A stretch of DNA of 64,000 nt, from positions 22,031 through 86,030 of the forward strand of contig CAKOOO010000004.1 of NCBI GenBank assembly GCA_934098665.1, written 5' to 3'. The stretch is from an uncultured Bacilli bacterium (GTDB lineage Bacteria > Bacillota_I > Bacilli_A > RF39 > UBA660). The notes under the pieces were generated by a model, which did not search any database, was not told the origin of the DNA, and saw nothing but the letters and a program-made list of their open reading frames with translations. The position numbers and the translations under genes were made by a program. Of the stretch, positions 1-38,963 are shown one piece after another. The number at the start of each line of letters is the position of its first letter. The stretch's first letter is position 1.

Positions 1-1231
1 AATAGTAGTACCCATGCAAATACATAAAACAATGCTTGCTGATAACTACAAAGAAACTATTGATACAATATTACAAAATTTAACTGGTAAAACATTTAAT
101 ATTGAATATTTTACGGAAGATGAACTTCCAAAAGAAGAAAATATTTTACCAAAAGAAAAAAATGAAACTTCTAATGATGAGACGTGGATAACAAATTTAA
201 ATCCAAAATTTACATTCGAATCATTTGTAGTAGGGGAATCAAATAGACTTGCAGTAGTATCTGCACATGCAGTTGCAGAAAATCCAGGGTCAATTCATAA
301 TCCATTATTTCTTTATGGAAGAAGTGGAATTGGTAAAACTCACTTAATGCATGCAATTGGAAATTATATTGTTTCACACTCAAATAAAAAAGTTTTATAT
401 GTTACAAGTAATGAATTTGTTGAAGATTATACTGGAATAGCTAGCATAGAAAAGGGAATTAGTACTTTAAACTATGCTAAAAATTTCAAAGACAAATATA
501 AAAATGTTGATGTTTTAATAATAGATGATATTCAGTTTTTAGTAGGTGCAGATAAATCTCAACAAGAATTTTTTCATACATTTAACGCACTTTATCAGTC
601 AAATAAACAAATAATTATTAGTTCTGATAGATCGCCAGATGATTTAAAAAAAATTGAAGATAGACTTAGAAGTAGATTTATGTGGGGACTTCCTGTTGAT
701 ATATATCCACCTGATTTTGCTCTAAGATGTAAGATTATTCACAGTAAAATAAAAAATACTTCTTTAGAAGATAGATTAAATCAAGAAGTTATTGAGTATA
801 TTGCTAATTCTTGTCAAAATGATATTAGATTTATTGAAGGAACCATTAATAGATTAATGGCATACACCGCAATGATGGTACCAGATAAAATTGATTTAAA
901 CTTTGCAATTGAGGCTTTAAAGGATTATTTAAGTGTTAATATATATGCTGATAATTCAATTAGTAAGATTCAAAAAACTGTTGCTGACTATTTTGGAATA
1001 ACTGTAACAGATTTAAAAAGTAAAAAGAAAGTATCAAATATTAGTAAACCTAGACATATAGCTATTTATCTATGTAGAATTGAGACTGATGAAAAATTAG
1101 AAAGAATAGGTCTAGAATTTGGAGGGAGGGATCATTCAACTATTTCTGCATCTGTTGATAAGATTAATAATGACATTAAAAAAGATGAAAAATTAAATAA
1201 TGTTATCAAAGAAATTAAAAATAAGTTATAA
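1..1231 (+). CDS. dnaA: Chromosomal replication initiator DnaA, 5' end cut by the window edge
   Basis: Walker A GRSGIGKTHLMHAIGNY, AAA+ core, and C-terminal DnaA-box-binding region (KPRHIAIYLCR...GGRDHSTI). The frame is open from nt 2 and the first in-window ATG is at 14. Compared with Bacillus DnaA, roughly 40-50 N-terminal residues appear to lie upstream of the window. Confidence 0.95.
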   Translation, partial: IVVPMQIHKTMLADNYKETIDTILQNLTGKTFNIEYFTEDELPKEENILPKEKNETSNDETWITNLNPKFTFESFVVGESNRLAVVSAHAVAENPGSIHNPLFLYGRSGIGKTHLMHAIGNYIVSHSNKKVLYVTSNEFVEDYTGIASIEKGISTLNYAKNFKDKYKNVDVLIIDDIQFLVGADKSQQEFFHTFNALYQSNKQIIISSDRSPDDLKKIEDRLRSRFMWGLPVDIYPPDFALRCKIIHSKIKNTSLEDRLNQEVIEYIANSCQNDIRFIEGTINRLMAYTAMMVPDKIDLNFAIEALKDYLSVNIYADNSISKIQKTVADYFGITVTDLKSKKKVSNISKPRHIAIYLCRIETDEKLERIGLEFGGRDHSTISASVDKINNDIKKDEKLNNVIKEIKNKL

Positions 1232-1368
1232 GTTTGTGGAATTGAAGTTGATAAATTTTTTACAAAAAGGGACAATTTTTTAAGTAGATAAGAAAAATAA
1301 ATAAGTTATCAACATAATCCACCTTATAAATATAATAATAATTAATAATAAAAGAAAGAAGGATTAAA
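1232..1368. other. dnaA-dnaN intergenic origin segment (oriC/incC-like): DnaA-box-like 9-mers followed by an AT-rich stretch
   Basis: TTATCAACA at 1306-1314 matches the box TTATCCACA at 8/9. It is directly abutted by TAATCCACC at 1315-1323 (7/9). A weaker complement-strand box TGTGGAATT lies at 1235-1243 (6/9). An almost pure A/T run with ATA/TAA 3-mer periodicity spans 1324-1350. The position between dnaA and dnaN is typical of Firmicute oriC. Confidence 0.5.
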
Positions 1369-2484
1369 ATGAAATTTACAATTAAAAAAAATATTATATT
1401 AGAAGCTTTATCAAACGCAGTTAGAGCTTTATCAACAAAAATAACTATTCCTGTTTTAAATGGAATATTATTAAACTTAACAAATGAAGGTTTAGAGGTT
1501 CAAGCAAGTGATAGTGAACTTACAATAAAAACAACAATTAACGCAAAAGATATTATTAACATTGAAACTGAAGGAAGAGCTGTTTTACAAAGTAGGTGTT
1601 TATTGGAAATAATTCGTAAAATGCCTAATGAAATTATAAATTTTGAAATAACAGAAAATAATAACATAAAAATATATTCTGATATTAATGAATATATAAT
1701 TGAATGTTATAATATTGGGGAATATCCAAATATCACTCTTGAAAGAAGTCAAAATTTAATACATTTATCATCTAAACTTTTAAAAGAAATGTTAAATCAA
1801 ACATCATATGCAATGAGTCTTCAAGAAGTACGTCCATTATTAACAGGATTAAATCTAAAAATAAATGGTGATATTTTGGAATGTACTGCAACAGATTCAT
1901 ATAGATTAGCTAAAAAAACAGTTAAGTTAGATACACCAATACAAAATAGTATTAACATAGTTATACCAGGAAAAAGTGTTAATGAACTTGTGTATATTTT
2001 AAAAGATGAAGGAGATGTAGTAATTGACTTATTTAAAAATAAAGTTTTATTTACTTATAATAATATTTTATTTCAAACAGCACTATTAAATGGAACTTAT
2101 CCTGACACTTCAAATTATATTCCAAAAGATTTTAGTTATATGATAAACTTAAATTTAAAAGAATATTATAGTGCTATTGATAGAGCATCAACTATTATGA
2201 TAAGTAAAGATAAAAATATTATAAAAATGATTATAGATAATAAAAAAATGACTTTATATGGTTCTTCATCAGATAGTAAAAGTAAAGAGGAACTAGTAAT
2301 TGACTGTAACAATAAGGAAAAGTTAGAAATTAGTTATTCATCTAAATATATGCTTGATGCATTAAAAGTATTAGATAGTGAAAATATTATTTTATTAATA
2401 AATGGAGATGATAAACCAATAATAATCAACAGTGTTGATGATGATACAATAATAGAACTAATATTACCAATAAAAACTTATTAA
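1369..2484 (+). CDS. dnaN: DNA polymerase III beta sliding clamp
   Basis: 371 aa directly after dnaA with typical clamp length. Family-like blocks include TATDSYRLA and the C-terminal PIIINS...LILPIKTY. RBS GAAGGA lies upstream. Confidence 0.95.
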   Translation: MKFTIKKNIILEALSNAVRALSTKITIPVLNGILLNLTNEGLEVQASDSELTIKTTINAKDIINIETEGRAVLQSRCLLEIIRKMPNEIINFEITENNNIKIYSDINEYIIECYNIGEYPNITLERSQNLIHLSSKLLKEMLNQTSYAMSLQEVRPLLTGLNLKINGDILECTATDSYRLAKKTVKLDTPIQNSINIVIPGKSVNELVYILKDEGDVVIDLFKNKVLFTYNNILFQTALLNGTYPDTSNYIPKDFSYMINLNLKEYYSAIDRASTIMISKDKNIIKMIIDNKKMTLYGSSSDSKSKEELVIDCNNKEKLEISYSSKYMLDALKVLDSENIILLINGDDKPIIINSVDDDTIIELILPIKTY

Positions 2485-2548
2485 CATCCATAAAATGACA
2501 TAAAATTACATTTATAATGTGTTATTATGTTTTTGTCAGGGGGACAAT

Positions 2549-2992
2549 ATGGACAAATATATAATAAACGAAAACACAATTTTAATAATGCCATTTGAAA
2601 AAAAGTCAAAAGTAATAGAAACATATATAACTTATATTATTGATAATAGTGTAATGAATATAATAGATGAAAGTTGTAAATATTATGGTAGTAATCTAAT
2701 AGGTAGAATAAAATCCACAAAATATTTAACTGGGTTAAGTACGAAATTACCCATTGTAATAAGTGAAAAATATAATTTAATATTTTTTCCAACAACATCA
2801 TATAAAAATGACAAATGTATTTGGATAAATTATCATTCAATTATTGAATACTATTCAAATAATAAACAGCATATTAACATTTTATTAAATAATGAAAAAA
2901 GAATTACTTTAGATGTTTCAAATAATGTTTTTAATAAACAGTTATTTAAAGCCTCAAGATTAGAAACAATTTTAAAAAGAAACAACAAATAA
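2549..2992 (+). CDS. comK: ComK-family competence transcription factor-like protein (short, 147 aa)
   Basis: IIDESCKYYGSNLIGRIKSTKYLTGLSTKLPIVISEKYNLIFFPTTSYKNDKCIWINYHSI is collinear with B. subtilis ComK IVDRSCRFFGSSYAGRKAGTYEVTKISHKPPIMVDPSNQIFLFPTLSSTRPQCGWISHVHV. The start is moved from GTG 2519 to ATG 2549 because of the GGGGGA RBS at 2538-2543. Confidence 0.75.
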   Translation: MDKYIINENTILIMPFEKKSKVIETYITYIIDNSVMNIIDESCKYYGSNLIGRIKSTKYLTGLSTKLPIVISEKYNLIFFPTTSYKNDKCIWINYHSIIEYYSNNKQHINILLNNEKRITLDVSNNVFNKQLFKASRLETILKRNNK

Positions 2993-3090
2993 TTCTTTTT
3001 TTTATGCCTAATTTATGATATAATGTAATTGTGTATAGGAGTACAAGGAAAGGGGTAAAATTGTTAAAATACTATTAAAAAGAGGTAAAA

Positions 3091-4173
3091 ATGAAAATAA
3101 GCAATTTAAGACTTGTTAATTTTAGAAATTATGATACATTAAATATTGATTTTTCAAATGCATTAAATATTATTTATGGAGATAATGGCTCTGGTAAATC
3201 AAATTTAATTGAAGCTATTTATTTATTGTCACTTACTAAATCTTTTAGAACACTTGATGACAAAAACTTAATTAATAAAAATTACAAAGTAGCTTTAATA
3301 AAGGGAGTAGTTGACGAAAAAACTTATTTTATTGAACTTTCTAAAGATGATAAAAAAATCTTTATAGATAATAAAAAAGTTGTAAAAATATCTGATTATA
3401 TTTCAAAAATAAATATTATTTTATTTAATCCATTAGATACAAAAATTATAAGTGATTCACCAAGTGTTCGTAGAAAAATGCTTAATATCGAAATTTCTCA
3501 AATTAATTATTCTTATGTTTCTTTAATTAGTTCTTATAATAAGATTTTAAAACATCGTAATGCTTATCTTAAAAATTTATTGTTAAATGGTAATGCCTCC
3601 TATGAATATTTAGATATTTTAACAAATAAACTTGTTGATCTTGGATACCAAATACATAAAATTAGAGAGGATTATGTTAAATTAATCAACGAAAATTTAA
3701 CTAATATTTATAAAAACATATTTACTGAAGGAAGTTTAATAATTAAATATGTTAGTTCATTTAATAATAAAGATATTAGTGAAATTCATAAAGTGTATAA
3801 GGATAATTATCGTAAAGAAATTAATTATGGTAAAACATTAAGCGGTGTTCATCATGACGATATTGAATTTATATTGGATGGATATAATATTAAAGAATAT
3901 GGTAGTGTTGGACAACAAAAAAACGCAATTATATCATTTAAATTATCAGAATTAATTATAATAAAAAAATTAAATGGAACTTATCCTATTTTAATTTTAG
4001 ATGATTTATTTTCAGAACTTGATGATAACAAGATTAATAACATAATTAAAATGCTAAATAAGGAAGTACAAACTTTTATAACTACAACAAATATTAATAA
4101 TGTAGATAAAGATTTACTTACTGATAGCTATATTTATTATATAAAAAATGGCAAAATAGAAAGGAAGAATTAA
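3091..4173 (+). CDS. recF: DNA replication and repair protein RecF
   Basis: N-terminal L.L.NFRNY...[14 protein letters not shown] Walker A, signature GSVGQQKN, and Walker [13 protein letters not shown]. Conserved position before gyrB. Confidence 0.92.
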
Positions 4174-4175
4174 TT

Positions 4176-6095
4176 ATGGCAGAACATTATGATGCATCAG
4201 ATATTCAGGTATTAGAGGGTCTAGAAGCTGTTAGAAAAAGACCTGGTATGTATATAGGAACAACTGATGTAAAAGGACTTCATCATTTAGTGTGGGAAAT
4301 TGTTGATAATTCTATTGATGAGGCTTTAGCAGGATATTGTAAAAATATTGAGGTAATTGTTAATAAGGATAATTCAGTTACTGTAAAAGATGATGGAAGG
4401 GGTATACCAGTTGATATACATCCAAAAACAGGTTTATCGACAGTTGAGACAGTTTATACAGTACTTCATGCTGGAGGTAAATTTGGTGGAGGAGGATACA
4501 AAGTATCTGGTGGGTTACATGGAGTTGGTGCTTCAGTAGTAAACGCTCTTTCATCATGGTTAGAAGTAAAAGTATTTAAAAATAGTAAAATTTATTACAT
4601 TAAATTTTCTAATGGAGGACATGCCGTTGAAAAATTACATGAAATAGGTGACTGTGAACCTAACCGTACAGGAACATGGGTTACTTTTAAACCAGATTGT
4701 GAAATTTTTGATACAACAGTTTATGATTATGAGACTTTAAAAGTAAGATTAAGAGAGCTAGCATTTTTAAATAGGGGTTTAAGAATTACTTTAAGAGATG
4801 ATAGAGATGAAGAAGACACAACTGGAGACACATTTATGTATGAAGGTGGTATAGCTGAATATGTAAAATTTATCAACAAAAATAAAACACCAATTCATGA
4901 AGATATTATTCATTTACAAGGTGAAGAAGCTGGTGTATTTTTTGAAGTTGCTTTACAATATAATGATGGATATAATGATAATATTTATTCATTTGTTAAC
5001 AATATTAATACACATGATGGGGGAACACACGAAGAAGGTGTAAGAAGAGCACTTACGAGAGTAATAAATAATTATGCAAGAAAAGCAAATTTACTAAAAG
5101 AAAAAGATGAATCATTAACTGGTGATGATGTTAAAGAAGGGTTAACAATGATTATATCTTGTAAACATCCTAATCCCCAATTTGAAGGACAAACAAAAGG
5201 TAGACTCGGAAATTCTGAGGTTAGAAAACTTGCTGATAATGTCTTTTCAGAGGGTTTTGAAAAATTTTTATTAGAAAATCCAGCGGATGCAAAAGTTATT
5301 GTTGAAAAAGCGATGCTTGCTTGTCGTGCTAGAAATGCTGCAAAAAAGGCAAGAGAAATTACTAGAAAAACAGATTTAGCAGTAACAAATTTTTTTGGTA
5401 AATTATGTGATTGTAAAAGTAAAGATCCAAACGAATCAGAAATATTTATAGTCGAGGGAGATAGTGCAGGTGGATCAGCAAAAAAAAGTAGAGATTCATT
5501 AAGACAAGCAATATTACCTTTACGTGGTAAAATATTAAACGTTGAAAAAAATAGGTTAGACAGGGCATTAAATAACGCAGAAATAAGGTCCATAATTACA
5601 GCATTTGGTACTGGAATAGGTGATGAATTTAATTTAGAAAAATTACGTTATAATAAAATTATTATAATGACCGATGCCGATGTTGATGGAGCTCATATTA
5701 GAATATTACTTTTAACGTTATTTTATCGTTTTTTTAGACCTATTGTTGAGGCTGGACATGTATATGCTGCTCAACCACCTTTATTTAGAATTAGATATGG
5801 TAAAACAAGAAAATATGTACTAGATGAAAAAGAAAAAGATGCTTATTTAAATTCTTTACCAGAAAATGTAAGAAATAGAGTTGAAATAACAAGAATGAAA
5901 GGTCTTGGTGAAATGGATCCTGAAGAGTTAAACGAAACTACAATGGATATAGAAAAAAGAACTTTAAGGAAAATAGTAGTTGAAGATTGTATGATGGCTG
6001 ACGAAATATTTAGCAAATTAATGGGTGATGAAGTTGAACCAAGAAGAGAGTTTATTGAAGAAAATGCAATAAATGTACAAAATTTGGATATATAG
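4176..6095 (+). CDS. gyrB: DNA gyrase subunit B
   Basis: [29 protein letters not shown] ATPase motifs, Toprim [15 protein letters not shown], and [13 protein letters not shown]. Confidence 0.98.
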
Positions 6096-6106
6096 GAGGT
6101 TTTTAA

Positions 6107-8614
6107 ATGGATAATGATAAAGAAAATATTATAAATGATGATGAAGAAATAATTGTTGATGATGAATATTCAGGTGAATTTCACGAAAAAGATAAACATA
6201 TTGAAAATAATATTGTTAATGAAGTAAAAACATCTTTTCTTGATTATTCTATGAGTGTTATTACTTCAAGAGCATTACCTGATTTAAGAGATGGGTTAAA
6301 ACCAGTTCATAGACGTATTTTATGGTCTATGTATGAAGAAGGTAATACGCCTGACAAACCACATAAAAAATCCGCTACTACAGTTGGATACGTTATGGGA
6401 CATTACCATCCTCATGGCGATTCTTCTATTTATGATGCGATGGTTAGACTTGCACAAGATTTTAATCAAAGATACATGCTTGTCGATGGACATGGAAATT
6501 TTGGTACTATTGAGGGTGATGGTGCTGCTGCATATCGTTATACTGAGGCTCGTCTTGCAAAAATTTCTTTAGAATTATTAAGAGACATACAAAAAGATAC
6601 AGTTGATATGGATGATAACTATACTGCTACTGAAAAAGAACCTAAAGTACTTCCAAGTAGATTTCCAAATATTTTAGTTAATGGTTCAATGGGAATAGCA
6701 GTTGGTATGGCAACAAATATTCCACCACATAATTTAGGAGAAGTTATTGATGGTTGCATAGCATATATAGATAATCCTGAAATTAATACTTTAGAACTTA
6801 TGCAGTATATTAAAGGGCCAGACTTCCCAACAGGTGGTATTATTTTAGGTAATTCTGGTATAAAAAAAGCTTATGAAACAGGTAGAGGTACAATTACTAT
6901 ACGAAGTAGAGCTGTTATTGAAGAACACAATAATCATAATGTTATTGTTATATCAGAAGTACCTTTTGGTGTCAACACAGCGGAATTAAAAGATAAAGTT
7001 GCAGAACTTGTTCATAACAAAATATTAGATGGTATTTCAGATTATCATACTGACTTAAAAGATGGTATTAAAATTACTATAACCTTAAAAAAAGATGCAA
7101 ATCCTCAAGTTGTTTTAAATAATTTATTTAAACATACAGCATTTCAAATATCTTATGGAATAATATTTTTAATGCTTGATGATGGAACACCTAAAACTCT
7201 TGGTTTAAAAGATATTTTGGCTAAATATGTTGATTTTCAACGTGAAGTTATTATTAGAAGAACTAAATATGATTTAGGTAAAGCAGAAGCTAGAGTTCAT
7301 ATATTAAATGGTTTAAAAATAGCGCTTGATTACATAGATGAAGTTATAAAAATTATTAAATCAAGTAAAACAGATGAAATAGCTAAAAAAGAATTGAATG
7401 AACGTTTTGGATTAGATGATATACAGTCTGATGCAATATTAGAAATGAAACTAAAACGCCTAACAGGCCTTGAAAGAGATAAAATTGAATCTGAACTAGC
7501 TGATTTAATTAAATTAATAGATGAATTGAGATTTATTTTATCAAGTCCTGAAAAAGTAAATGAAATAATTAAAAATGAAATGTTAGAAATTAAGAATAAA
7601 TATAGTGATGAGCGAAGAACCTCAATTGATATGACAGCAATTGATTATATTGATGATGAATCACTTATCCCAGAAGAAAAAATAATGGTAGTATTAACAA
7701 AGAAAGGTTATATTAAACGTTCTAAACCAGATATATTTAGAACACAAAACCGTGGTGGAATGGGTGTTAAAGGTATAACAACCAATGATGAAGATTTTGT
7801 TGATCAAGCATGTAGTTTATCAACACATGATCATATTTTATTCTTTACTAATAAAGGAAAAGTATATAGAATGAAGGGTTATGAAATACCTGAATTTTCA
7901 AGAACATCTAAAGGACTTCCTATTGTTAATCTTTTACCACTTGAAAAAGAAGAATTTGTTACTTCAATTGTTTCCATAGAACAAAATAGTAATAAACAAT
8001 TTTTATTCTTTGCCACAAGCATGGGTATTGTTAAAAAAACATCAATTAATGAGTTTGAGAATATTAGAACATCAGGAAAAATATGTATTAGTTTAAAAGA
8101 TAAAGATGAATTAATTGGTGTAAAATTAACTTCAGAAAATGATTTAATACTTTTAGGTTCAAGTTCTGGTAAATTAGTTAAATTTAATGAAAATGAAGTT
8201 AGAACAATGGGAAGAACAGCTTCTGGAGTAAGAGGTATTAATCTAGATGGTGGTAAATGTATTTGTTTAGAGGTAGTCAATGAAAATGATACTATATTAA
8301 TTGTTACAGAACTTGGGTATGGTAAAAAAACTTCTGTGTCTGAATATAGACAAACAAAAAGAGGTAGTAAGGGTGTAAAAGCATTAAATATTACTGAAAA
8401 AAACGGAACCCTAGTATCAGTAAAACTTTCTGATGAAGAAAAAGATTTAATTATAATGACTAATATTGGAATAACAATTAAAATACCTATTAATCAATTA
8501 TCTAAATTAGGCAGAGCGACACAAGGAACTAGATTAATTAATTTAAAAGATAATCAATATGTAACTACAGTGAGCATTGTTGATAAATCATTAGAACACA
8601 TCAATGAAAACTAG
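6107..8614 (+). CDS. gyrA: DNA gyrase subunit A
   Basis: RALPDLRDGLKPVHRRILW, the QRDR-like block HPHGDSSIYDAMVRLAQDF, the catalytic-Tyr region AAAYRYTEARL, and C-terminal beta-pinwheel repeats. It has an approximately 35-aa acidic N-terminal extension. Confidence 0.98.
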   Translation: MDNDKENIINDDEEIIVDDEYSGEFHEKDKHIENNIVNEVKTSFLDYSMSVITSRALPDLRDGLKPVHRRILWSMYEEGNTPDKPHKKSATTVGYVMGHYHPHGDSSIYDAMVRLAQDFNQRYMLVDGHGNFGTIEGDGAAAYRYTEARLAKISLELLRDIQKDTVDMDDNYTATEKEPKVLPSRFPNILVNGSMGIAVGMATNIPPHNLGEVIDGCIAYIDNPEINTLELMQYIKGPDFPTGGIILGNSGIKKAYETGRGTITIRSRAVIEEHNNHNVIVISEVPFGVNTAELKDKVAELVHNKILDGISDYHTDLKDGIKITITLKKDANPQVVLNNLFKHTAFQISYGIIFLMLDDGTPKTLGLKDILAKYVDFQREVIIRRTKYDLGKAEARVHILNGLKIALDYIDEVIKIIKSSKTDEIAKKELNERFGLDDIQSDAILEMKLKRLTGLERDKIESELADLIKLIDELRFILSSPEKVNEIIKNEMLEIKNKYSDERRTSIDMTAIDYIDDESLIPEEKIMVVLTKKGYIKRSKPDIFRTQNRGGMGVKGITTNDEDFVDQACSLSTHDHILFFTNKGKVYRMKGYEIPEFSRTSKGLPIVNLLPLEKEEFVTSIVSIEQNSNKQFLFFATSMGIVKKTSINEFENIRTSGKICISLKDKDELIGVKLTSENDLILLGSSSGKLVKFNENEVRTMGRTASGVRGINLDGGKCICLEVVNENDTILIVTELGYGKKTSVSEYRQTKRGSKGVKALNITEKNGTLVSVKLSDEEKDLIIMTNIGITIKIPINQLSKLGRATQGTRLINLKDNQYVTTVSIVDKSLEHINEN

Positions 8615-21102: not shown

Positions 21103-21851
21103 TGTTTATTGATATACATTGTCATTTATATAAAGAATATTATGATGATATAAATGATGTAATTAATCTTTCTAAAAAAGATGGTATAGCTCTTTTTATA
21201 AATGCTGGCTCTGATATAAAATCAAATAAAGAAATTTTAAATCAAAATATAAATGGACTTTATAAAGTTATAGGATATCATCCTGAGTTTGCTTCATCAA
21301 TAACAATAAATGATTTAGAATTATTAGAAAATCAGATAATTAATAATCATATTGTTGGTATAGGTGAAATAGGACTTGATTATCATTATGAAGACTATGA
21401 TAAAGAAAAACAAATAAATTTATTTGAGTATCAGCTATACCTTGCACAAAAATATAGCTTACCTGTGGTTATTCATTCAAGGCAGGCGACCTCAGATACT
21501 ATTAACATATTAAAAAAATATTTAGTTAAAGGTGTTATTCATTCATTTTCTGGTAGTATAGAAAGTGCTAAAGAATATATTAAAATGGGTTTTTTGTTAG
21601 GGGTAAATGGAGTTATTACTTTTAAAAATTGTAAATTAATCGAAGTATATAAAAGTCTAGGTGTAGATAATATTGTTTTTGAAACAGATAGTCCATATCT
21701 TACTCCTGTTCCTTTAAGAGGTAAACAAAATTATCCCGGTAATATAAAATATGTAGCAAACTTTATTTCAGAAAATTTAAATATTTCTTTAAATAAGCTT
21801 TCTGATATTACAAATGAAAATGTAAAAAAATGTTTTAAAATAAGTATATGA
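21102..21851 (+). CDS. tatD: TatD-family metal-dependent deoxyribonuclease/hydrolase (YabD)
   Basis: FIDIHCHL, GEIGLDYH, PVVIHSR, GVIHSFSG, and ETDSPYL. Follows metG as in Bacillus. Confidence 0.9.
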   Translation: MFIDIHCHLYKEYYDDINDVINLSKKDGIALFINAGSDIKSNKEILNQNINGLYKVIGYHPEFASSITINDLELLENQIINNHIVGIGEIGLDYHYEDYDKEKQINLFEYQLYLAQKYSLPVVIHSRQATSDTINILKKYLVKGVIHSFSGSIESAKEYIKMGFLLGVNGVITFKNCKLIEVYKSLGVDNIVFETDSPYLTPVPLRGKQNYPGNIKYVANFISENLNISLNKLSDITNENVKKCFKISI

Positions 21852-21904
21852 TAAAATTCATGTACTTTTTTTTCAACTCATGTTATAATGTTCATGAGGA
21901 TAAG

Positions 21905-22441
21905 ATGAAAAAAGTATTAAAATCACTAAAAATCATATTATTAGTTATGGCAATATTTGTATCATTTACAAATAGTTTTAGGTATGAAGCAAAAGTTCAT
22001 AATAATAATCCTAATAAAACTGTTGATGAAATTGCTATGGCTTTAAAAATTAATGAATTTGATTATGACTCACTTTATAGTGCTAAAGATACATATAATG
22101 GAGATATAACTGGTTATGTATATAATTGTCCACTTTGTAATGGAACACTAGCTTGTTTAAGTAATTATAATATAAAAGATGGAACTAATACTTATGATGA
22201 TGTTCAGTATGGAAAAGTAAATATTGTTGCTTCGAGTGCTAATTTACCATGTGGATCAATAGTAAGATTTGAGGCACCAAGAATTTCTAATGAAACGATA
22301 TATGCAATAGTTTTAGATCGAGGCGTGCCAGGTAATGATTTAGATTTTTTAGCTCCAGATTATGATTATGCCATTAGCAATGTTGGTAGATTTAATACAT
22401 CATATGATGTTTTAAGAAGTGGATGGGCTGATGCAAGCTAA
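21905..22441 (+). CDS. Secreted 3D-domain protein (YabE-like C-terminal domain)
   Basis: N-terminal signal/TM KSLKIILLVMAIFVSF. C-terminal block ..VASSANLPCGSIVRFE...IYAIVLDRG...DLDFL is typical of 3D (Asp-rich) domains. Start set at ATG 21905 after GAGGA (21896-21900); an extended -10 TGTTATAAT ends at 21889. Confidence 0.5.
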   Translation: MKKVLKSLKIILLVMAIFVSFTNSFRYEAKVHNNNPNKTVDEIAMALKINEFDYDSLYSAKDTYNGDITGYVYNCPLCNGTLACLSNYNIKDGTNTYDDVQYGKVNIVASSANLPCGSIVRFEAPRISNETIYAIVLDRGVPGNDLDFLAPDYDYAISNVGRFNTSYDVLRSGWADAS

Positions 22442-23198
22442 AAAAAAATATGGTCAAAATTTTTTAATAAATCAAAATATAATAAATGAAATCACAAATC
22501 TAATTAACCCAAATGAAAATGATTTATTAATTGAAATTGGTCCGGGACAAGGGGCGTTAACAAAGTATCTTGCACAAAAAAAATCAAAACTTATATGTAT
22601 TGAAATTGATAAAGATATGCATGCATATTTAGATAAATTTGAAAATGAAAACTGTCATATCATATATGATGATATTTTAAGTACTAATTTAAAAGATATA
22701 ACTATAAATTTTGATAAAATATTTGTAATTGGAAATTTACCTTATTATATAACTAGCCCAATTATTGAATATTTAATAAATAATCTAAAAGCTGAAAAAA
22801 TGATATTTATGGTGCAAAAAGAAGTAGCAAATCGCTATTGTGCTGAAATTAATACTAAAGATTATGGCTATTTTACGTTATATCTTCGTTATTTTTATAA
22901 TGTTAAAAAAGAGATATTTGTTTCAAAAGATAATTTTAGACCTATACCTAAAGTTGATAGTATGGTTATTTCACTTACTAAAAGAAATGATACTCCGTCT
23001 GTTTCAAAAGAACTTTATTTTAATTTTTTGAAAGAAGCATTTTCTCATAAAAGAAAAACTTTAAAAAATAATATTAAGTCTTATGATTTTAATAAAGTAA
23101 AAGAAGTGTTAAATAAATATAATTTAAGTGATAATGTTAGAGCGGAAAATATAAAAGAAAATGTATATGTAGATATAGTAAATAATTTAGACAATTAG
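22419..23198 (+). CDS. rsmA: 16S rRNA (adenine1518/1519-N6)-dimethyltransferase RsmA/KsgA
   Basis: KKKYGQNFLINQNII, EIGPGQGALT, and GNLPYYITSPII. In-frame ATG 22431 is an alternative start. Confidence 0.93.
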   Translation: MDGLMQAKKKYGQNFLINQNIINEITNLINPNENDLLIEIGPGQGALTKYLAQKKSKLICIEIDKDMHAYLDKFENENCHIIYDDILSTNLKDITINFDKIFVIGNLPYYITSPIIEYLINNLKAEKMIFMVQKEVANRYCAEINTKDYGYFTLYLRYFYNVKKEIFVSKDNFRPIPKVDSMVISLTKRNDTPSVSKELYFNFLKEAFSHKRKTLKNNIKSYDFNKVKEVLNKYNLSDNVRAENIKENVYVDIVNNLDN

Positions 23199-23210
23199 TC
23201 TAATTTTTTT
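23187..23210 (+). terminator. Weak rho-independent terminator at the rsmA stop
   Basis: Stem TTAGAC (23187-23192) pairs with GTCTAA (23198-23203), followed by seven T (23204-23210). The stem is short and AT-rich. Confidence 0.4.
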
Positions 23211-23211
23211 C

Positions 23212-23240
23212 TTGTTAATAAATACTTTTTACGCTATAAT
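23212..23240 (+). promoter_or_regulatory. Sigma-A-type promoter of the SDR/PLP-enzyme/amidoligase cassette
   Basis: TTGTTA at 23212-23217, a 17-nt spacer, then TATAAT at 23235-23240. Confidence 0.5.
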
Positions 23241-23265
23241 AGTTTTGATTGAAAGGGATATTAAT

Positions 23266-23991
23266 ATGAGAAAAGTTGCTCTTGTCACGGGTTCAAATAC
23301 TGGAATAGGTAAAGAAACAATAATTTTATTTGCAAAAAATAACTATGATGTTATTATAACTTATTATAAGTCAATAGATGAAGCAAATAAGTTAAAACAA
23401 GATATTATAAATAATTATAATGTAAAATGTGAAACTATTAAATGTGATATTTCAAATGAAGAAGATGTAAAAAATTTATATAATTTTGTTTTAAATAAAT
23501 TTAAAAAACTTGATGTTTTAGTAAATAATGCTGCTGTAAGTGATGATATGATATTAGAATTTAAAAAAATAATCGAATTTAAAAAAGTAATTGATGTTAA
23601 TTTAACAGGTACTTTTATGGTTACAAAATATTTATATAAATTGATAAATAAGGGATGTATTATTAATGTTGGTTCGACTAATGGAATAGATACATATTAT
23701 CCTGAAAGTATTGATTATGATGCCTCTAAAGCTGGTATAATTTCTCTTACTCATAATTTTGCTACGATGTTTTCCCCAAAAATTCGTGTAAATGCAGTAT
23801 GTCCTGGATGGGTGGAAACTAGACAAAATAAAAATCTTACAGTTAAACAAATAAATATACTTAAAAAAAATATATTATTAAAAAGGTTTGCCCAACCACA
23901 GGAAATTGCCAAAGTAATTTATTTTATTGCAAATGATGCAACCTACATTAATAATTCAATTATTAGAGTAGATGGAGGTAGTAAATGTTAA
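23266..23991 (+). CDS. Short-chain dehydrogenase/reductase (classical SDR, FabG-like)
   Basis: TGSNTGIGK cofactor motif, NNAA, and the catalytic S...YDASK tetrad region. Start ATG 23266 (MRKVALVTG); the ORF-track TTG 23212 coincides with the promoter. Confidence 0.85.
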   Translation: MRKVALVTGSNTGIGKETIILFAKNNYDVIITYYKSIDEANKLKQDIINNYNVKCETIKCDISNEEDVKNLYNFVLNKFKKLDVLVNNAAVSDDMILEFKKIIEFKKVIDVNLTGTFMVTKYLYKLINKGCIINVGSTNGIDTYYPESIDYDASKAGIISLTHNFATMFSPKIRVNAVCPGWVETRQNKNLTVKQINILKKNILLKRFAQPQEIAKVIYFIANDATYINNSIIRVDGGSKC

Positions 23992-25232
23992 ATAATAATG
24001 TTATAAAAAAGATAGATGAAAAAATAAAACCTTATTTAGATATGGTAGATAATATTTCTTATCTAAATTCACAAAAAATACTTAATTCTTTTTTGAAAGA
24101 AAAAGTTTCTATTAATGATTTTAATTCTACTACAGGATATGGCTATTCAGATGAAGGCCGTGATAAAATTGAAAGAATATATGCAGATATTTTTCATGCA
24201 CAAGATGCTCTTGTAAGAAATCAATTTATATCAGGTTCTCATGCTTTAACGGTGTGTTTATTTGCACTTTTAAGACCTAATGATACATTATTAAGTATTA
24301 CTGGAAAGCCTTATGATACTTTAGATGAAGTTATTGGCATAAAGAAAAATTCAAGTTCCTTAAAATCATATAATATAAATTATGAACAAGTGGATTTGGT
24401 TAATAATGATTTTGATTATGAAAAAATTGAAAATTTAATTACTAAAAGATTTTATAAAGTAATTGAAATTCAACGTTCAAAAGGATATTCATTAAGAGAA
24501 AGTCTGTCAATAGAAAAATTAGAAGAAGTAATTAAAATGATAAAATTTAAATCCCCGGAAACAATTGTTATGGTAGATAATTGTTATTGTGAACTTGTTT
24601 CTTTAAAAGAACCAACTGATGTTGGTGCAGATATCTGTGTTGGATCTTTAATTAAAAATCTAGGTGGTGGTATAGCTCAAAATGGTGGCTATATTGTTGG
24701 TAAAAAAGATTTAGTTCATCTTGCATCAGAAAGATTAAATTTACCCGGAGAAGCTAAAGAGGTTGGCCCAAGTTTAAATGCTAATAAAAGTATTTTACAA
24801 GGTTTATATATGTCCGTAAATGCTGTATCTTCATCATTAAAAACAGCTATTTTTACTAGCGCAATATTTGATTATTTAGGATATAATGTTAGTCCAAAAT
24901 ATAATGAAGATAGAGTGGATATTGTTCAAAATATTTATTTTAATAACGAAGAAGATATGACAAATTATGCTATAGGAATTCAAAAATATTCACCAATAGA
25001 TTCCATGTATGCACCAGAAAAAACTAATATGCCTGGTTATAGTAATAAAATAATTATGGCAAGTGGTTCATTTACTCAAGGCTCCTCAATTGAGTTATCT
25101 TGTGATGGACCAATTAAACCACCTTATGTAATTTTTCAGCAAGGTTCACTTACTTATGATTATGGAAAAATTACTGTTATAAACGCGATAAATTATTATT
25201 TAGCAAGAAAAAATAATTATGAAAAAAATTAA
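23985..25232 (+). CDS. YnbB-family PLP-dependent enzyme (methionine gamma-lyase-like / 'aluminium resistance' family)
   Basis: Collinear with B. subtilis YnbB: TTGYGYSDEGRDKIERIYADIF, ITGKPYDTLDEVIG, IQRSKGYS, VDNCYCE, GADICVGSLIKNLGGG (PLP Lys region), and MPGYSNKIIMASGSFTQGSSIELSCDGPIKPPY. Overlaps the SDR gene by 7 nt. Confidence 0.85.
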   Translation: MLNNNVIKKIDEKIKPYLDMVDNISYLNSQKILNSFLKEKVSINDFNSTTGYGYSDEGRDKIERIYADIFHAQDALVRNQFISGSHALTVCLFALLRPNDTLLSITGKPYDTLDEVIGIKKNSSSLKSYNINYEQVDLVNNDFDYEKIENLITKRFYKVIEIQRSKGYSLRESLSIEKLEEVIKMIKFKSPETIVMVDNCYCELVSLKEPTDVGADICVGSLIKNLGGGIAQNGGYIVGKKDLVHLASERLNLPGEAKEVGPSLNANKSILQGLYMSVNAVSSSLKTAIFTSAIFDYLGYNVSPKYNEDRVDIVQNIYFNNEEDMTNYAIGIQKYSPIDSMYAPEKTNMPGYSNKIIMASGSFTQGSSIELSCDGPIKPPYVIFQQGSLTYDYGKITVINAINYYLARKNNYEKN

Positions 25233-26676
25233 AATGACTGATATTCAAAAAGTAAAAAACATTTTAGAAAATAAATTAAATATTAATGAATTTATTTCTA
25301 TTTTTAATTCAATAAACAATGAAAATTATAAGTATGAGATATTGTTCAAAGTATATAAAAATATATCTTTAAACTGTTTAAAGATTTTATTAAATAATAT
25401 AAATTCGGATAAAATTAAAACAAAATTTTTATTAAATTATTATAATAATAAAAGCATAACATCTTCATATTATGATGAAAACTTTATAAACATTATTTGT
25501 TGTAATATAAAAAGTGATGTATATAAAATAATGCTAATTTCAAAAATAAATTTTAAATTATATGAGATAGTTAAAATACTTTTTAGTTTACATAATAAAA
25601 AATTAATAATACCATTTTGTGAAGATAAAAAATATGAACAAATTAAAAAAGAACTAATTATATTAACTGAAGATTATTCATATATTGAAAATTATTTTAA
25701 TTCACTAAAAAAACTTGATGAAAAATTAGCATTTATTAATACTGTTAAAAATCCCAATATAAAATCTGTACTTATAAATAAAATAAAAAATAAATCTTAT
25801 AGAAATTTTTTAAATATGAGTTATGAAGATACTAGTTTTTTAATAAATGATACTTTAGTAGATAAAAATATAACTTTTGGCGTTGAATTTGAATTATTAA
25901 ATAAAAATAAAAAATATTTTAATATGCTTACGGAGATATTTGATAATTTTTTATTTACTTATGATGACTCTATAAAAAATGGTTTTGAAATAGTTTCACC
26001 GGTAATGAAATACTGTAAAAATGATATGCAAAGATTATTTATTATATGTAATTCATTTAAAAAAAATGGGTTTTATACAAATAAATTATGTGGTGGTCAT
26101 ATTCATATAGGCGCGGATTATTTAAATAGCGTTGATGATTATAATAACTTATTAATGCTATATTGTAATATTGAAAATATTTTATATGCAATTACAAATA
26201 AAAGTAATATGTGTGTTAGAAAAGGCTATGTTAATTATGCAAAACCTATTTATAATAAAATTGTTACAAATCAAGAAATAATTTTTAGAAGTGAAAATAT
26301 AAAAGAATATATTCATAATTTAAAAAATGTATTAGGAACTAGATTTACAAGTATTAATTTTCAAAATATAGGTACTAAAAATAAAAATACTATAGAATTA
26401 CGCATGCCAAATGGTGAAATAGAATATAACGATTTACATGCAAATATTGTTTTATTTTCTAAAATTATTGAGGTTTCTCACAAATTAAATTGTGATGATT
26501 TTTTTAAAAAAGATTATTTTTATTTATTGTTAAATGCTACAGATAACGATCAAAAATTTTATTATTTAATGCATCTTTTATTTGATGATTTTAACGATAT
26601 GAAAATATATATTGATAGATATTATACAAACTTCAAGGATAAAAATGTTTATAATCTAATATTAAAAAAATCATAA
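25219..26676 (+). CDS. Putative amidoligase (Amidoligase_2 / glutamine-synthetase-like fold) with an uncharacterised approximately 215-aa N-terminal region
   Basis: C-terminal half carries the ordered family motifs GVEFE (res. 221-225), GFEIVSPV, CGGHIHIG, and NTIELRMPNGE. The N-terminal half is a K/N/I-rich helical region with no motif I recognise. Overlaps the upstream gene by 14 nt. Confidence 0.65.
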   Translation: MKKIKMTDIQKVKNILENKLNINEFISIFNSINNENYKYEILFKVYKNISLNCLKILLNNINSDKIKTKFLLNYYNNKSITSSYYDENFINIICCNIKSDVYKIMLISKINFKLYEIVKILFSLHNKKLIIPFCEDKKYEQIKKELIILTEDYSYIENYFNSLKKLDEKLAFINTVKNPNIKSVLINKIKNKSYRNFLNMSYEDTSFLINDTLVDKNITFGVEFELLNKNKKYFNMLTEIFDNFLFTYDDSIKNGFEIVSPVMKYCKNDMQRLFIICNSFKKNGFYTNKLCGGHIHIGADYLNSVDDYNNLLMLYCNIENILYAITNKSNMCVRKGYVNYAKPIYNKIVTNQEIIFRSENIKEYIHNLKNVLGTRFTSINFQNIGTKNKNTIELRMPNGEIEYNDLHANIVLFSKIIEVSHKLNCDDFFKKDYFYLLLNATDNDQKFYYLMHLLFDDFNDMKIYIDRYYTNFKDKNVYNLILKKS

Positions 26677-26714
26677 TTTATATGTTTTTAGCATATTTTT
26701 AATTGGTGATATAT

Positions 26715-27479
26715 TTGAATATACAGGTTGGAGATTTAGTAACTAGGAAAAGTTATAACAATGATATTGTATTTAAAGTATTATCAATTACAGAATCTAC
26801 TGTTTATTTAAAAGGCGAGTTTGATAGACTCCTTGCGGATAGTGATATTTCTGATTTAGTAAAATGTGATAATGCAAAAGATAATTTTAAGGTAAATTTA
26901 AATCTAAATGAAGATAGAAGCAATTATTTTTATTTACCTGGAAAAATACTTCATATTGATGGTGATGTCGAATATCTAGAAAGATGTTTAAAATTTTATA
27001 AAGAAAATAAGATATATGCTATAGGTAAAAAAATAAAAGAAGAAGATATCTGCAAACAATTAAAAACACTACTTGTAGAATTTAAACCGGATATTTTGAT
27101 TATAACTGGACATGATGCGTATCACTCAAAAAATAGTGATAAAAATAATATGAATAATTATAAAAATTCAAATAATTTTGTTAAAGCGGTAAAGGTTGCA
27201 AGAAATTATGAAAAAAGTCATGAAAAACTAGTTATAATCGCAGGTGCTTGTCAGAGTAATTATGAAGCTTTAATAAAGGCGGGAGCAAACTTTGCCTCAA
27301 GTCCTAAAAGAGTCAATATTCATGCATTAGACCCCGCAATAATTGCAAGCAGTATAGCGCTTACTCAAACAAGTCAAGAAGTCGATGTTGTTGATTTATT
27401 AAATAAAACAAAGTATGGTTCAAATGGTATGGGTGGAATTATTACATCTGGTCTTATGTATGTGGGGTACCCTAGATGA
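26715..27479 (+). CDS. yabG: Sporulation-specific protease YabG
   Basis: NIQVGDLVTRKSY matches B. subtilis QFQIGDMVARKSY. Also LPGKILHIDGD, PDILIITGHDAY, LVIIAGACQSNYEALIKAGANFASSPKRVNIHALDP. The start is TTG 26715 or TTG 26703. Confidence 0.9.
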   Translation: MNIQVGDLVTRKSYNNDIVFKVLSITESTVYLKGEFDRLLADSDISDLVKCDNAKDNFKVNLNLNEDRSNYFYLPGKILHIDGDVEYLERCLKFYKENKIYAIGKKIKEEDICKQLKTLLVEFKPDILIITGHDAYHSKNSDKNNMNNYKNSNNFVKAVKVARNYEKSHEKLVIIAGACQSNYEALIKAGANFASSPKRVNIHALDPAIIASSIALTQTSQEVDVVDLLNKTKYGSNGMGGIITSGLMYVGYPR

Positions 27480-28745: not shown

Positions 28746-29030
28746 ATGAGGACTAAAAAGGAAAAGAAAAGACTTGTTTTTATTTCATTTACTATTATTT
28801 GCTTAATAGTTCTTTTGGTTGTAAGTGTTTATAAAGATTTTTTAACGATTATTAAAAATAAAAATAAAACTTATAAACTTACCGCTAAATATGAACAGTT
28901 ATTAGATGAAAAAAAATCTTTGACATCTGAAGTCACTAAGATGAAAGATCCCGATTATTTAGCTAGATATGCCAAAGAAAAATTTTTATATTCAAAAGAT
29001 GATGAAGTTATAATTCGCATTGAAGATTAG
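28746..29030 (+). CDS. divIC: Septum formation initiator DivIC/FtsB family
   Basis: N-terminal TM followed by a coiled coil, and C-terminal DPDYLARYAKEKFLYSKDDEVI characteristic of the family. Confidence 0.85.
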   Translation: MRTKKEKKRLVFISFTIICLIVLLVVSVYKDFLTIIKNKNKTYKLTAKYEQLLDEKKSLTSEVTKMKDPDYLARYAKEKFLYSKDDEVIIRIED

Positions 29031-29601
29031 CTTCTTTTTTTATGATATTATCAATTAATCCATATTTTTTTGCCTCTAAGGTAGACATATAATAATCTTT
29101 ACCAGTATCTTTTTCAATTTTTGATAAAGATTTTTTTGTGTTTTTGGCAAGGATTTTATTGATTTTTGCTTTAGTTTTATTAATCCTGTCACTTTGAAGT
29201 TGAATATTTCTTGCACTTCCTTCGGCGCCACCAAGCACTTCATGAATCATAATTTCGGTATTTTCAAGTGCATATCTTTTATATCCACTTGAAAGTAAAA
29301 ATGCTCCCATACTTGCACATAAACCAACACCTATTGTAATTACATGACTATTTATATAGTTTATTGTATCATAAATTGCCAAACCTGCATTGACACTTCC
29401 ACCCGGAGAATTTATATATAAATATATGTCATTTTTATTAATGCTATCTAAATATAAAAACTCTGCGATAATTATATTAGCTATTTGATCATTAACTTCT
29501 CCAGTTAAAAATATTATTCTATTTGTTAATAAAAGAGAATATAAATCATAAGTTATTTGAGTATTTTCAGTTTGTTTTAATATAGTTGGTACGCTAAACA
29601 T
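29008..29601 (-). CDS. clpP: ATP-dependent Clp protease proteolytic subunit
   Basis: YDLYSLLLTNRIIFLTGEV, YINSPGGSV, catalytic Ser in GLCASMGAFLL, His in MIHEV, and Asp in DTGKDYYMS. It is the only confident minus-strand gene. Its 3' end overlaps divIC convergently by 23 nt. Confidence 0.9.
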   Translation of the reverse strand: MFSVPTILKQTENTQITYDLYSLLLTNRIIFLTGEVNDQIANIIIAEFLYLDSINKNDIYLYINSPGGSVNAGLAIYDTINYINSHVITIGVGLCASMGAFLLSSGYKRYALENTEIMIHEVLGGAEGSARNIQLQSDRINKTKAKINKILAKNTKKSLSKIEKDTGKDYYMSTLEAKKYGLIDNIIKKEANLQCEL

Positions 29602-38132: not shown

Positions 38133-38963
38133 ATGGCTATAAGACATTATAAACCAGTTACAAATGGTAGAAGAGGCATGAGTACTCTTGTTAATGAAGA
38201 AATCACAACAAAAACTCCTACTAAAGGATTACTTGGTAAAGTTAAAAAAACTGGTGGTAGAAATAATCAAGGTAAAATGACTGTTAGACACATTGGTGGT
38301 GGAGCTAAAAGAAAATATCGTGTAATTGATTTTAAAAGAAATAAAATCGGTGTTACAGGTAAAGTTGCAACCATTGAATATGATCCAAACAGAACAGCAA
38401 ATATTGCTTTAATTAACTATAAAGACGGAGAAAAAAGATATATTATTGCTCCAAAAGATTTAAAAGTAGGCGCTATCATTGAAAATGGTGAAAATGCTGA
38501 TATTAAAGTTGGTAATGCATTACCACTTAAAAATATTCCAGTAGGTACACTTGTTCATTGCATAGAACTTAAACCTGGTAAAGGTGCTGAAATTTGCCGT
38601 AGTGCTGGTGCATCTGCTCAAATTCTTGGTAGAGAGGATAAATATGTTCTTCTTAGACTTCAATCTGGAGAAACAAGAAAAGTTCTTGATAGATGTATGG
38701 CAACAATCGGTGTTGTTGGTAATGAAGATGCTAACCTAGTTAATATTGGTAAAGCAGGTAGAACTAGATATCTTGGAATTAGACCTACAAACCGTGGTTC
38801 TGTAATGAACCCTAACGATCACCCACATGGTGGTGGAGAAGGACGTGCTCCAATTGGTAGAAAGAGTCCAATGACTCCTTGGGGTAAACCTGCTCTTGGT
38901 GTTAAAACTAGAAAACCTAAAAAGGCATCTAGTAAACTTATTATAAGTAGGAAGACTAAATAG
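38133..38963 (+). CDS. rplB: 50S ribosomal protein L2
   Basis: [15 protein letters not shown]..., [18 protein letters not shown]. Confidence 0.99.

Follow-up and report, generated by a model that had tools for sequence, protein, structure and literature searches.

The DNA considered here is a stretch of 64,000 nucleotides (nt), hereafter the window, from the genome of an uncultured Bacilli bacterium (contig CAKOOO010000004.1 of assembly GCA_934098665.1, positions 22,031 to 86,030 of the forward strand). It is very AT-rich (26% GC) and comprises the origin region of a spore-forming bacterium of the human gut, of which related metagenome-assembled genomes (MAGs) carry the labels Bacilli, Tenericutes, and Erysipelotrichaceae. 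Between rsmA and yabG lie three open reading frames (ORFs) of the same strand, which encode a short-chain dehydrogenase/reductase (SDR), a YnbB-type enzyme dependent on pyridoxal 5'-phosphate (PLP), and a protein of the Amidoligase_2 family, and which overlap by 7 and 14 nt (Table 1). An initial annotation made from the letters alone had pointed out these three extra genes and their overlaps, a description that the ORF coordinates bear out, and had interpreted them as a self-contained operon for one compact pathway. The comparative analysis described here makes it probable that the locus consists of two parts of different age and meaning: a conserved SDR-YnbB module for the modification of elongation factor P (EF-P), and a species-specific extra amidoligase gene that stands outside this pathway.

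The SDR-YnbB pair and its linkage to efp

Searches with hidden Markov models (HMMs) agree with the families that had been named for the three products (adh_short, E = 3e-44; PF06838, E = 8.7e-155; PF12224, E = 3.2e-14). The PLP enzyme scores 515.7 bits with PF06838 (Met_gamma_lyase/YnbB), its residues 5-403 matching positions 3-402 of the 405 in the profile, and has the PDB entries 3JZL, 3HT4, and 3HVY ('YNBB B. subtilis ortholog') as relatives at about 1e-113; the YnbB of Bacillus subtilis is 67% identical to 3JZL (PMC6522883). On the basis of the PF06838 match and the PDB relatives, the protein is an orthologue of the YnbB that belongs to the EF-P 5-aminopentanol system. D198 in VDNCY (residues 197-201) and K224 in SLIKN (221-225) have the spacing expected for a fold-type-I PLP site, in which the lysine follows the aspartate after about 25 residues, and K224 is presumably, from general knowledge of the fold, the PLP lysine. 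The first gene encodes a classical, FabG-like SDR with the motifs TGSNTGIG (residues 8-15) and NNAA (87-90), the serine within GSTNG (136-140), and YDASK (151-155).

The initial annotation gave the function of YnbB as unknown, which is out of date. In B. subtilis, YnbB and an SDR have been linked to EF-P by genetics and mass spectrometry, and YnbB together with the SDR YmfI is genetically required for the 5-aminopentanol modification of EF-P Lys32 (PMC5885033). YmfI carries out the last step, from 5-aminopentanone to 5-aminopentanol, while YnbB has been proposed as the first actor, which moves a precursor onto EF-P (PMC5885033). Reviews of January and August 2026 name no required enzymes other than YnbB, GsaB, and YmfI and assign no biochemistry to YnbB; according to one of them YaaO, YfkA, and YwlG affect how extensive the modification is. 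In Staphylococcus aureus the KPGKG loop of EF-P is likewise the site of modification (modified peptide VIDFQHVKPGKGSAFVR), and the efp neighbourhood of this species in STRING contains only an Xaa-Pro aminopeptidase (PMC7327921).

The distribution of the pair was surveyed by scanning 185,579 species-representative genomes, which yielded 80 loci (here given L numbers) with a YnbB 50-69% identical to that of the window. The neighbours of YnbB were clustered over all 80 loci, and upstream neighbours were counted only where the upstream sequence is 900 nt or longer, which holds for 72 loci. An SDR is the most frequent neighbour by a wide margin, being present in 52 of the 80 loci. In 41 of the 72 informative loci the gene immediately upstream of YnbB is a co-oriented SDR homologue (38-68% identical); the gap in these 41 loci has a median of -7 nt, and the two genes overlap in 32 of them. 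The 7-nt overlap in the window is therefore a trait of the family.

The efp gene, recognized by its EFP_N, EFP, and Elong-fact-P_C domains, forms the fourth-ranked neighbour cluster and lies at most five genes from YnbB in 13 loci, although the 80 loci represent related genomes that are not independent, so that 13 linkages in 80 do not amount to 13 events. By our estimate, for a single-copy gene among about 2,000 genes, such proximity is expected by chance in about 0.5% of genomes. All 13 linked efp genes encode the HVKPGKG[AS]AF loop with the lysine at its tip, which is residue 32 (33 or 38 in three cases where the ORF was called longer). The linked loci are labelled Bacilli, Erysipelotrichaceae, and Clostridia, their YnbB proteins are 50-64% identical to that of the window, and efp and the two enzyme genes are combined in at least five arrangements (Table 1). 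This variety of architectures argues for a maintained linkage and not for one inherited block of synteny. No report of an efp-SDR-ynbB cluster or of SDR-YnbB coupling was found in the literature.

Some of these loci hold further genes within or beside the pair. An unannotated protein of about 150 amino acids (aa) is wedged between SDR and YnbB in four species (L046:5459-5914, L051:4734-5189, L057:5035-5961, and L065:5061-5963); it is internally duplicated to 300-308 aa in two of the four, has no Pfam match, and is absent from the window, and L031:5511-5990 contains a look-alike. This protein could be a further partner of the module for EF-P modification. Two Clostridia MAGs carry a gene for a PnuC-type nicotinamide mononucleotide transporter between efp and YnbB (L091:1450-2406 and L094:4648-5604).

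The membership of the second protein in the YnbB family, the conserved SDR-YnbB coupling, the efp linkage in relatives, and the genetics in B. subtilis together indicate that the pair is most likely a module for a 5-aminopentanol-type modification of EF-P Lys32, in which YmfI-like and YnbB components are encoded by overlapping genes. By analogy with B. subtilis, the PLP-dependent YnbB would act early and install or process the C5 chain on the EF-P lysine, and the FabG-like SDR, in the role of YmfI, would reduce the carbonyl of 5-aminopentanone to the alcohol. A completed 5-aminopentanol group would add 101.08 Da at Lys32. It is again by this analogy that we infer both the YmfI reaction for the SDR of the window and a correspondingly modified EF-P in this organism.

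Several results speak against this assignment. A scan of the window for efp found none; the sole KPGKG encoded in the window, near 38571, belongs to an ORF that was read by eye as ribosomal protein L2 and not efp, so that the linkage to efp is a feature of the relatives and not of the window itself. Among the window ORFs that reach 330 aa or more, none encodes a gsaB-like aminotransferase. The YmfI equivalog model NF047420 of NCBIfam, which has a cut-off of 238 bits, gives 129.7 bits for the SDR of the window and 155-174 bits for its efp-linked relatives. Generic FabG models outscore the YmfI model, no SDR model of NCBIfam reaches its own cut-off for the window protein, and public annotation names the relatives 'SDR family oxidoreductase' or '3-oxoacyl-ACP reductase', never YmfI. 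Because of its genomic context, we nevertheless propose that the SDR works like YmfI, as an EF-P 5-aminopentanone reductase, even though its score leaves it outside the formal YmfI family.

The same similarities could be taken to place the pair in the metabolism of sulfur amino acids, in C-S lyase chemistry, or in fatty-acid-type metabolism, with the proximity of efp as an accident of synteny. The Cys/Met-metabolism PLP fold of YnbB, the names given by the PDB depositors, and the better fit of the SDR to FabG models agree with such a role. However, genetics and mass spectrometry connect YnbB and the SDR with EF-P in B. subtilis (PMC5885033), the linkage to efp occurs in at least five arrangements over divergent lineages, and no fab, cys, or met genes are found among the recurrent neighbours, which makes a purely metabolic role quite unlikely.

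An amidoligase confined to one species

The third protein reaches 53.8 bits with PF12224 (gathering score 22), in an alignment restricted to residues 253-416. Its four ordered Amidoligase_2 motifs, already noted in the initial annotation, are present at residues 221-225, 255-262, 292-298, and 393-400, where a family alignment of 46 sequences has invariant columns. The invariant columns include G221, E223, E225, G255, E257, C291, G292, H294, H296, G298, E319, R334, T391, E393, R395, and N398, and 17 of 17 family-invariant residues are retained, among them the Glu, His, and Arg residues that reactions involving metal, ATP, and acyl phosphate would require. The protein is probably active, as a predicted ATP-dependent carboxylate-amine ligase. 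The AlphaFold2 model (mean pLDDT, the predicted local distance difference test, of 87.6) shows a catalytic domain with the fold of GCS2 and glutamine synthetase (GS), for which Foldseek returns 1TT4 (YbdK, a GCS2 carboxylate-amine ligase) as the top PDB match (probability 1.0, E = 8e-3) and also lists 3O6X (GS type III). The two-domain build of the query keeps the template modelling (TM) score to 1TT4 low, at 0.27/0.35. The N-terminal domain is an alpha-solenoid that matches no Pfam family and that Foldseek relates to alphaRep and HEAT repeats; in the predicted model, this solenoid suggests that the amidoligase has a macromolecular partner. No matches were obtained with NCBIfam, PADLOC, or PHROGs models, and no significant match among PDB sequences. 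The nearest homologues, at 32-43% identity, are longer proteins of 570-580 aa; aligned to residues 68-539 of a 580-aa homologue, the window protein is about 67 residues shorter at the N-terminus and about 40 at the C-terminus. No Shine-Dalgarno sequence is visible for the gene, the start of which overlaps the end of ynbB.

The three genes together occur in at least seven contigs from human-gut metagenomes, which at 99.7-100% identity to the window represent one species. In the 80 YnbB loci of other species, a search with the window proteins (tblastn) found the amidoligase in none. A reciprocal survey covered 89 amidoligase loci, of which metagenomes supplied 76 and look-ups 13; 88 of these lack SDR and YnbB, the exception (L100) being the species of the window itself (99% identity), and efp is absent from all 89. 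The nearest species, L015, whose YnbB is 69% identical, has the order metG-tatD-yabE-rsmA-SDR-YnbB-yabG-veg-spoVG as in the window without the amidoligase, and a gap of only 34 nt separates its ynbB from yabG. The sequence upstream of yabG, CATAT..TTGGTGATAT, is common to the window and L015; because this block is shared, the amidoligase gene can be placed precisely between the ynbB stop and the sequence that precedes yabG. Judged by these alignments, the amidoligase is a lineage-specific addition, found at this locus only in one uncultured human-gut Bacilli species, and it probably shares expression with the pair through its position alone and not as a member of the pathway. Two points count against leaving it out: loss of the gene in all relatives, instead of gain here, is less parsimonious but possible, and the overlap with ynbB, the intact active site, and a host-like GC content at third codon positions (GC3) leave room for a functional link with the pair.

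The view of the initial annotation was that SDR, YnbB, and amidoligase form one pathway for an amino-acid-derived metabolite or a peptide tag, and that pairing of YnbB with a GS-fold enzyme recurs. The genes are indeed co-directional and overlapping, the active site of the ligase is intact, and every conspecific contig preserves the trio. However, the annotation had named lack of co-conservation as grounds for abandoning the idea, and co-occurrence was found in 0 of 80 YnbB loci and in 1 of 89 amidoligase loci, this one in the same species; the nearest relative is without the amidoligase, and homologues of the ligase have entirely different neighbours. The absence of an amidoligase from all 80 YnbB loci likewise removes the recurrent pairing. 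The gene orders given there for B. subtilis, with rsmA beside yabG and ynbB beside glnR-glnA, are consistent with the report of ynbB in a 'ynbAB operon' (PMC5885033) and lend no weight to a GS-fold link. A single pathway of three enzymes is thus highly improbable; what survives of the compact pathway is the tight coupling of the SDR and the PLP enzyme, most likely for the modification of a lysine side chain, and the inclusion of the amidoligase does not.

A different link would arise if the amidoligase had been recruited to the EF-P pathway, where it would acylate the terminal amine of the aminopentanol or aminopentanone chain or recognise EF-P through its solenoid. Coupling to ynbB by a 14-nt overlap without a Shine-Dalgarno sequence of its own, the intact carboxylate-amine ligase site, a solenoid of the protein-binding type, and host-like codon usage would fit such a role, and a free primary amine is available on the 5-aminopentanol chain (PMC5885033). 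Against it, the combination is known from a single species, and in the 88 other amidoligase loci no efp, SDR, or YnbB is nearby. Other lineages moreover insert different genes in the same operon, such as the 150-aa protein in L046, L051, L057, and L065, and these differing insertions indicate that the site tolerates passengers. We regard recruitment as very unlikely, and give a very slim chance to the specific version in which the amidoligase docks on EF-P by its solenoid and adds a carboxylate-bearing group (e.g., an amino acid) to the amine of the Lys32 chain. If true, this would constitute a fourth, hybrid kind of EF-P modification, with an alkyl chain and an amide-linked extension.

The gene could also be neutral cargo or a remnant in decay, cut short at both ends and functionless in its host, as it is shorter than all close homologues (68-539 of 580), has no partner genes, and is restricted to one species. 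Yet its frame of 485 codons is open, the invariant catalytic residues are kept, and the fold is confidently predicted. The gene is also the same in all sampled strains, at 99.7-100% identity, which is too high to measure selection. An apparent pseudogene in the conspecific L012 (6275-7746, with ORFs of 301 and 200 aa) proved to be split by a scaffold gap, a run of N, and not by a frameshift. A remnant is therefore unlikely, and we retain the interpretation of the amidoligase as an addition next to, and not within, the EF-P module.

As to the origin of the gene, several possibilities were considered and rejected. Its GC content is 0.17, compared to 0.22-0.28 for its neighbours, but this follows from its amino-acid composition, and GC3 (0.099) equals that of the neighbours, so that there is no compositional sign of recent transfer. 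Flanking repeats or target-site duplications were sought, and only low-complexity chance matches were obtained. The equal GC3 and the lack of flanking repeats imply that the acquisition is not recent or that the donor had a similar composition. A phage origin was discarded, as relatives in IMG/VR are 21-29% identical over the catalytic domain only and PHROGs gave no match. The Amidoligase_2 family is associated with partner genes for glutamine amidotransferases or peptidases, or with mobile elements; none of these is found beside the amidoligase in the window or in the 89 homologue loci. The homologues occur in gut Firmicutes in unrelated contexts, often as arrays of tandem paralogues (122 copies in 81 loci).

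Two features of the homologue loci stand apart from the question of the window. Tandem triplets of amidoligases (542-655 aa), in which one or two small ORFs (83-161 aa) come after each gene, give L098:7001-14726 and L099:7001-15968 the appearance of cassette arrays. An unannotated family of about 557 aa often adjoins the amidoligases; its 47 copies are spread over 30 of 81 loci, among them L001, L004, L007 (e.g., 864-2537), L095 (4430-6103), and L096. Its members contain two Rx4H-like motifs (RNKLAH and RNSIAH) and show a faint affinity to HEPN domains (PF18736 weak; HEPN_Swt1, E = 0.09). Membership in a defence system was considered for the amidoligase and for this neighbour family, and PADLOC has no match for either.

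Transcription signals and flanking genes

The initial annotation had placed a terminator-like hairpin and a separate promoter in front of the SDR. The hairpin, within which the TAG stop of rsmA falls, has a folding energy of -5 kcal/mol and a z-score of -1.34, and 15 of 200 shuffled sequences fold equally well, so that it is not separable from chance. A terminator scan did not report it and found no terminator-like site on the forward strand. The promoter-like sequence is present as described, but such sites occur at chance density in DNA of 22-26% GC (61 in 5.3 kilobases compared to 54 +/- 9 in shuffles). The TATAAT box and a GAAAGGG ribosome-binding site are kept at the equivalent place in L015, which makes a promoter in the 67-nt gap between rsmA and the SDR gene plausible; the promoter-like site itself has no statistical support. 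The same terminator scan found no terminator 3' of the amidoligase gene, and yabG starts 26-29 nt downstream, which does not bear out the idea of a self-contained operon. The three genes are thus neither bounded by terminators before and after nor preceded by a promoter above chance, as an independent transcription unit would be. An alternative TTG start of the SDR at 23212, which would give 259 aa, is unlikely.

The genes identified in the window include dnaA, dnaN, recF, gyrB, gyrA, mfd, metG, tatD, rsmA, yabG, veg, spoVG, yabP, yabQ, and divIC. The window opens with the first five of these (14-8614) and hence covers the replication-origin region of the chromosome. In the position of yabE, between tatD and rsmA, an ORF of 197 aa (21848-22441) shares 23 nt with rsmA. 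Pfam and NCBIfam give no match for it at E <= 0.01, although its counterpart in L015 is 63% identical. Further downstream, divIC (forward strand, 28746-29030) and clpP (reverse strand, 29008-29601) are convergent, with a 23-nt overlap of their 3' ends.

Table 1. Features of the rsmA-yabG interval of the window, and arrangements of efp with SDR and YnbB genes in related genomes.
Feature	Position or locus	Strand	Remarks
rsmA (ksgA), upstream flank	22419-23198	+	TIGR00755 252.5 bits (cut-off 171); RrnaAD 3e-56
Weak hairpin TTAGAC-AATTA-GTCTAA, then T-run	23187-23210	+	6-bp stem, 2 G-C pairs
Promoter-like TTGTTA-17-TATAAT	23212-23240	+	10/12 matches
SDR gene	23266-23991	+	241 aa from ATG
YnbB-family PLP enzyme gene	23985-25232	+	415 aa
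Amidoligase_2 gene	25219-26676	+	485 aa
Predicted N-terminal alpha-solenoid of amidoligase	25240-25818	+	Residues 8-200; 14 short helices; AlphaFold2
Predicted GCS2/GS-like catalytic domain of amidoligase	25873-26631	+	Residues 219-471; AlphaFold2 and Foldseek
Amidoligase motif GVEFE	25879-25893	+	
Amidoligase motif GFEIVSPV	25981-26004	+	
Amidoligase motif GGHIHIG	26092-26112	+	
Amidoligase motif ELRMPNGE	26395-26418	+	
Block upstream of yabG, CATATTTTTAATTGGTGATATAT	26690-26716	+	Shared with amidoligase-free L015 (7240-7285); marks downstream edge of the extra gene
yabG sporulation peptidase, downstream flank	26703-27479 (start 26703/26706)	+	TIGR02855 287.8 bits (cut-off 270.4)
efp-SDR-YnbB	L022, L036		One strand
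efp divergent from SDR-YnbB	L061		
SDR-efp divergent from YnbB	L087, L089, L091		Adjacent in L087 and L089; one gene between in L091
YnbB-PBP-efp	L023, L028		
efp near YnbB	L047, L050, L063, L085, L094		Looser spacing

Relation to known systems

The cascade that leads to 5-aminopentanol on EF-P is incompletely defined, and in B. subtilis its genes are scattered; ymfI is not known to be adjacent to ynbB there. The overlapping SDR-YnbB genes, often beside efp, in many uncultured gut Bacilli and Clostridia are independent comparative-genomic support for the genetic model. Cassettes of the type efp-SDR-YnbB are compact material for reconstitution and flag extra candidate partners such as the 150-aa protein. 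Assignment to EF-P would also correct the routine labels 'FabG' and 'aluminium resistance protein' that these genes receive. We consider the coupling of the pair and its clustering with efp a modestly useful handle on the pathway. The amidoligase in turn is a cautionary case, in which the close overlap of genes of the same orientation in a single genome was no sign of a shared pathway.

The window resembles the YnbB/GsaB/YmfI system of B. subtilis in having a full-length YnbB-family protein and a FabG-like SDR, and the efp genes of its relatives encode the same KPGKG loop as the modified EF-P of B. subtilis and S. aureus. In contrast to B. subtilis, the SDR and ynbB genes overlap in the window and stand beside efp in relatives, none of gsaB, yaaO, yfkA, and ywlG is visible in the window, and an amidoligase is appended. 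FabG is the best-scoring family for the SDR (TIGR01830, 177 bits; PDB 4RZH, 1.3e-39), and the classical cofactor and Ser-Tyr-Lys motifs are shared with it. However, the score remains under the FabG equivalog cut-off (177 compared to 297.75), and the gene is located outside any fab cluster and is translationally coupled to YnbB in many genomes. With the ligases of the Amidoligase_2, GCS2-YbdK, and GS type the third protein shares an HMM score above the gathering threshold, the Glu/His/Arg motifs, and a predicted fold nearest to YbdK (1TT4) and GS type III, while its 14-helix N-terminal solenoid lies outside the Pfam models. The beta-lysylation of EF-P by EpmA and EpmB in Escherichia coli offers a further comparison. 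EpmA, which catalyzes an ATP-dependent, amide-forming ligation as one of the steps, is a paralogue of class II aminoacyl-tRNA synthetases and not a GS-like amidoligase, but there too a dedicated and often efp-linked set of enzymes extends the conserved lysine of the loop.

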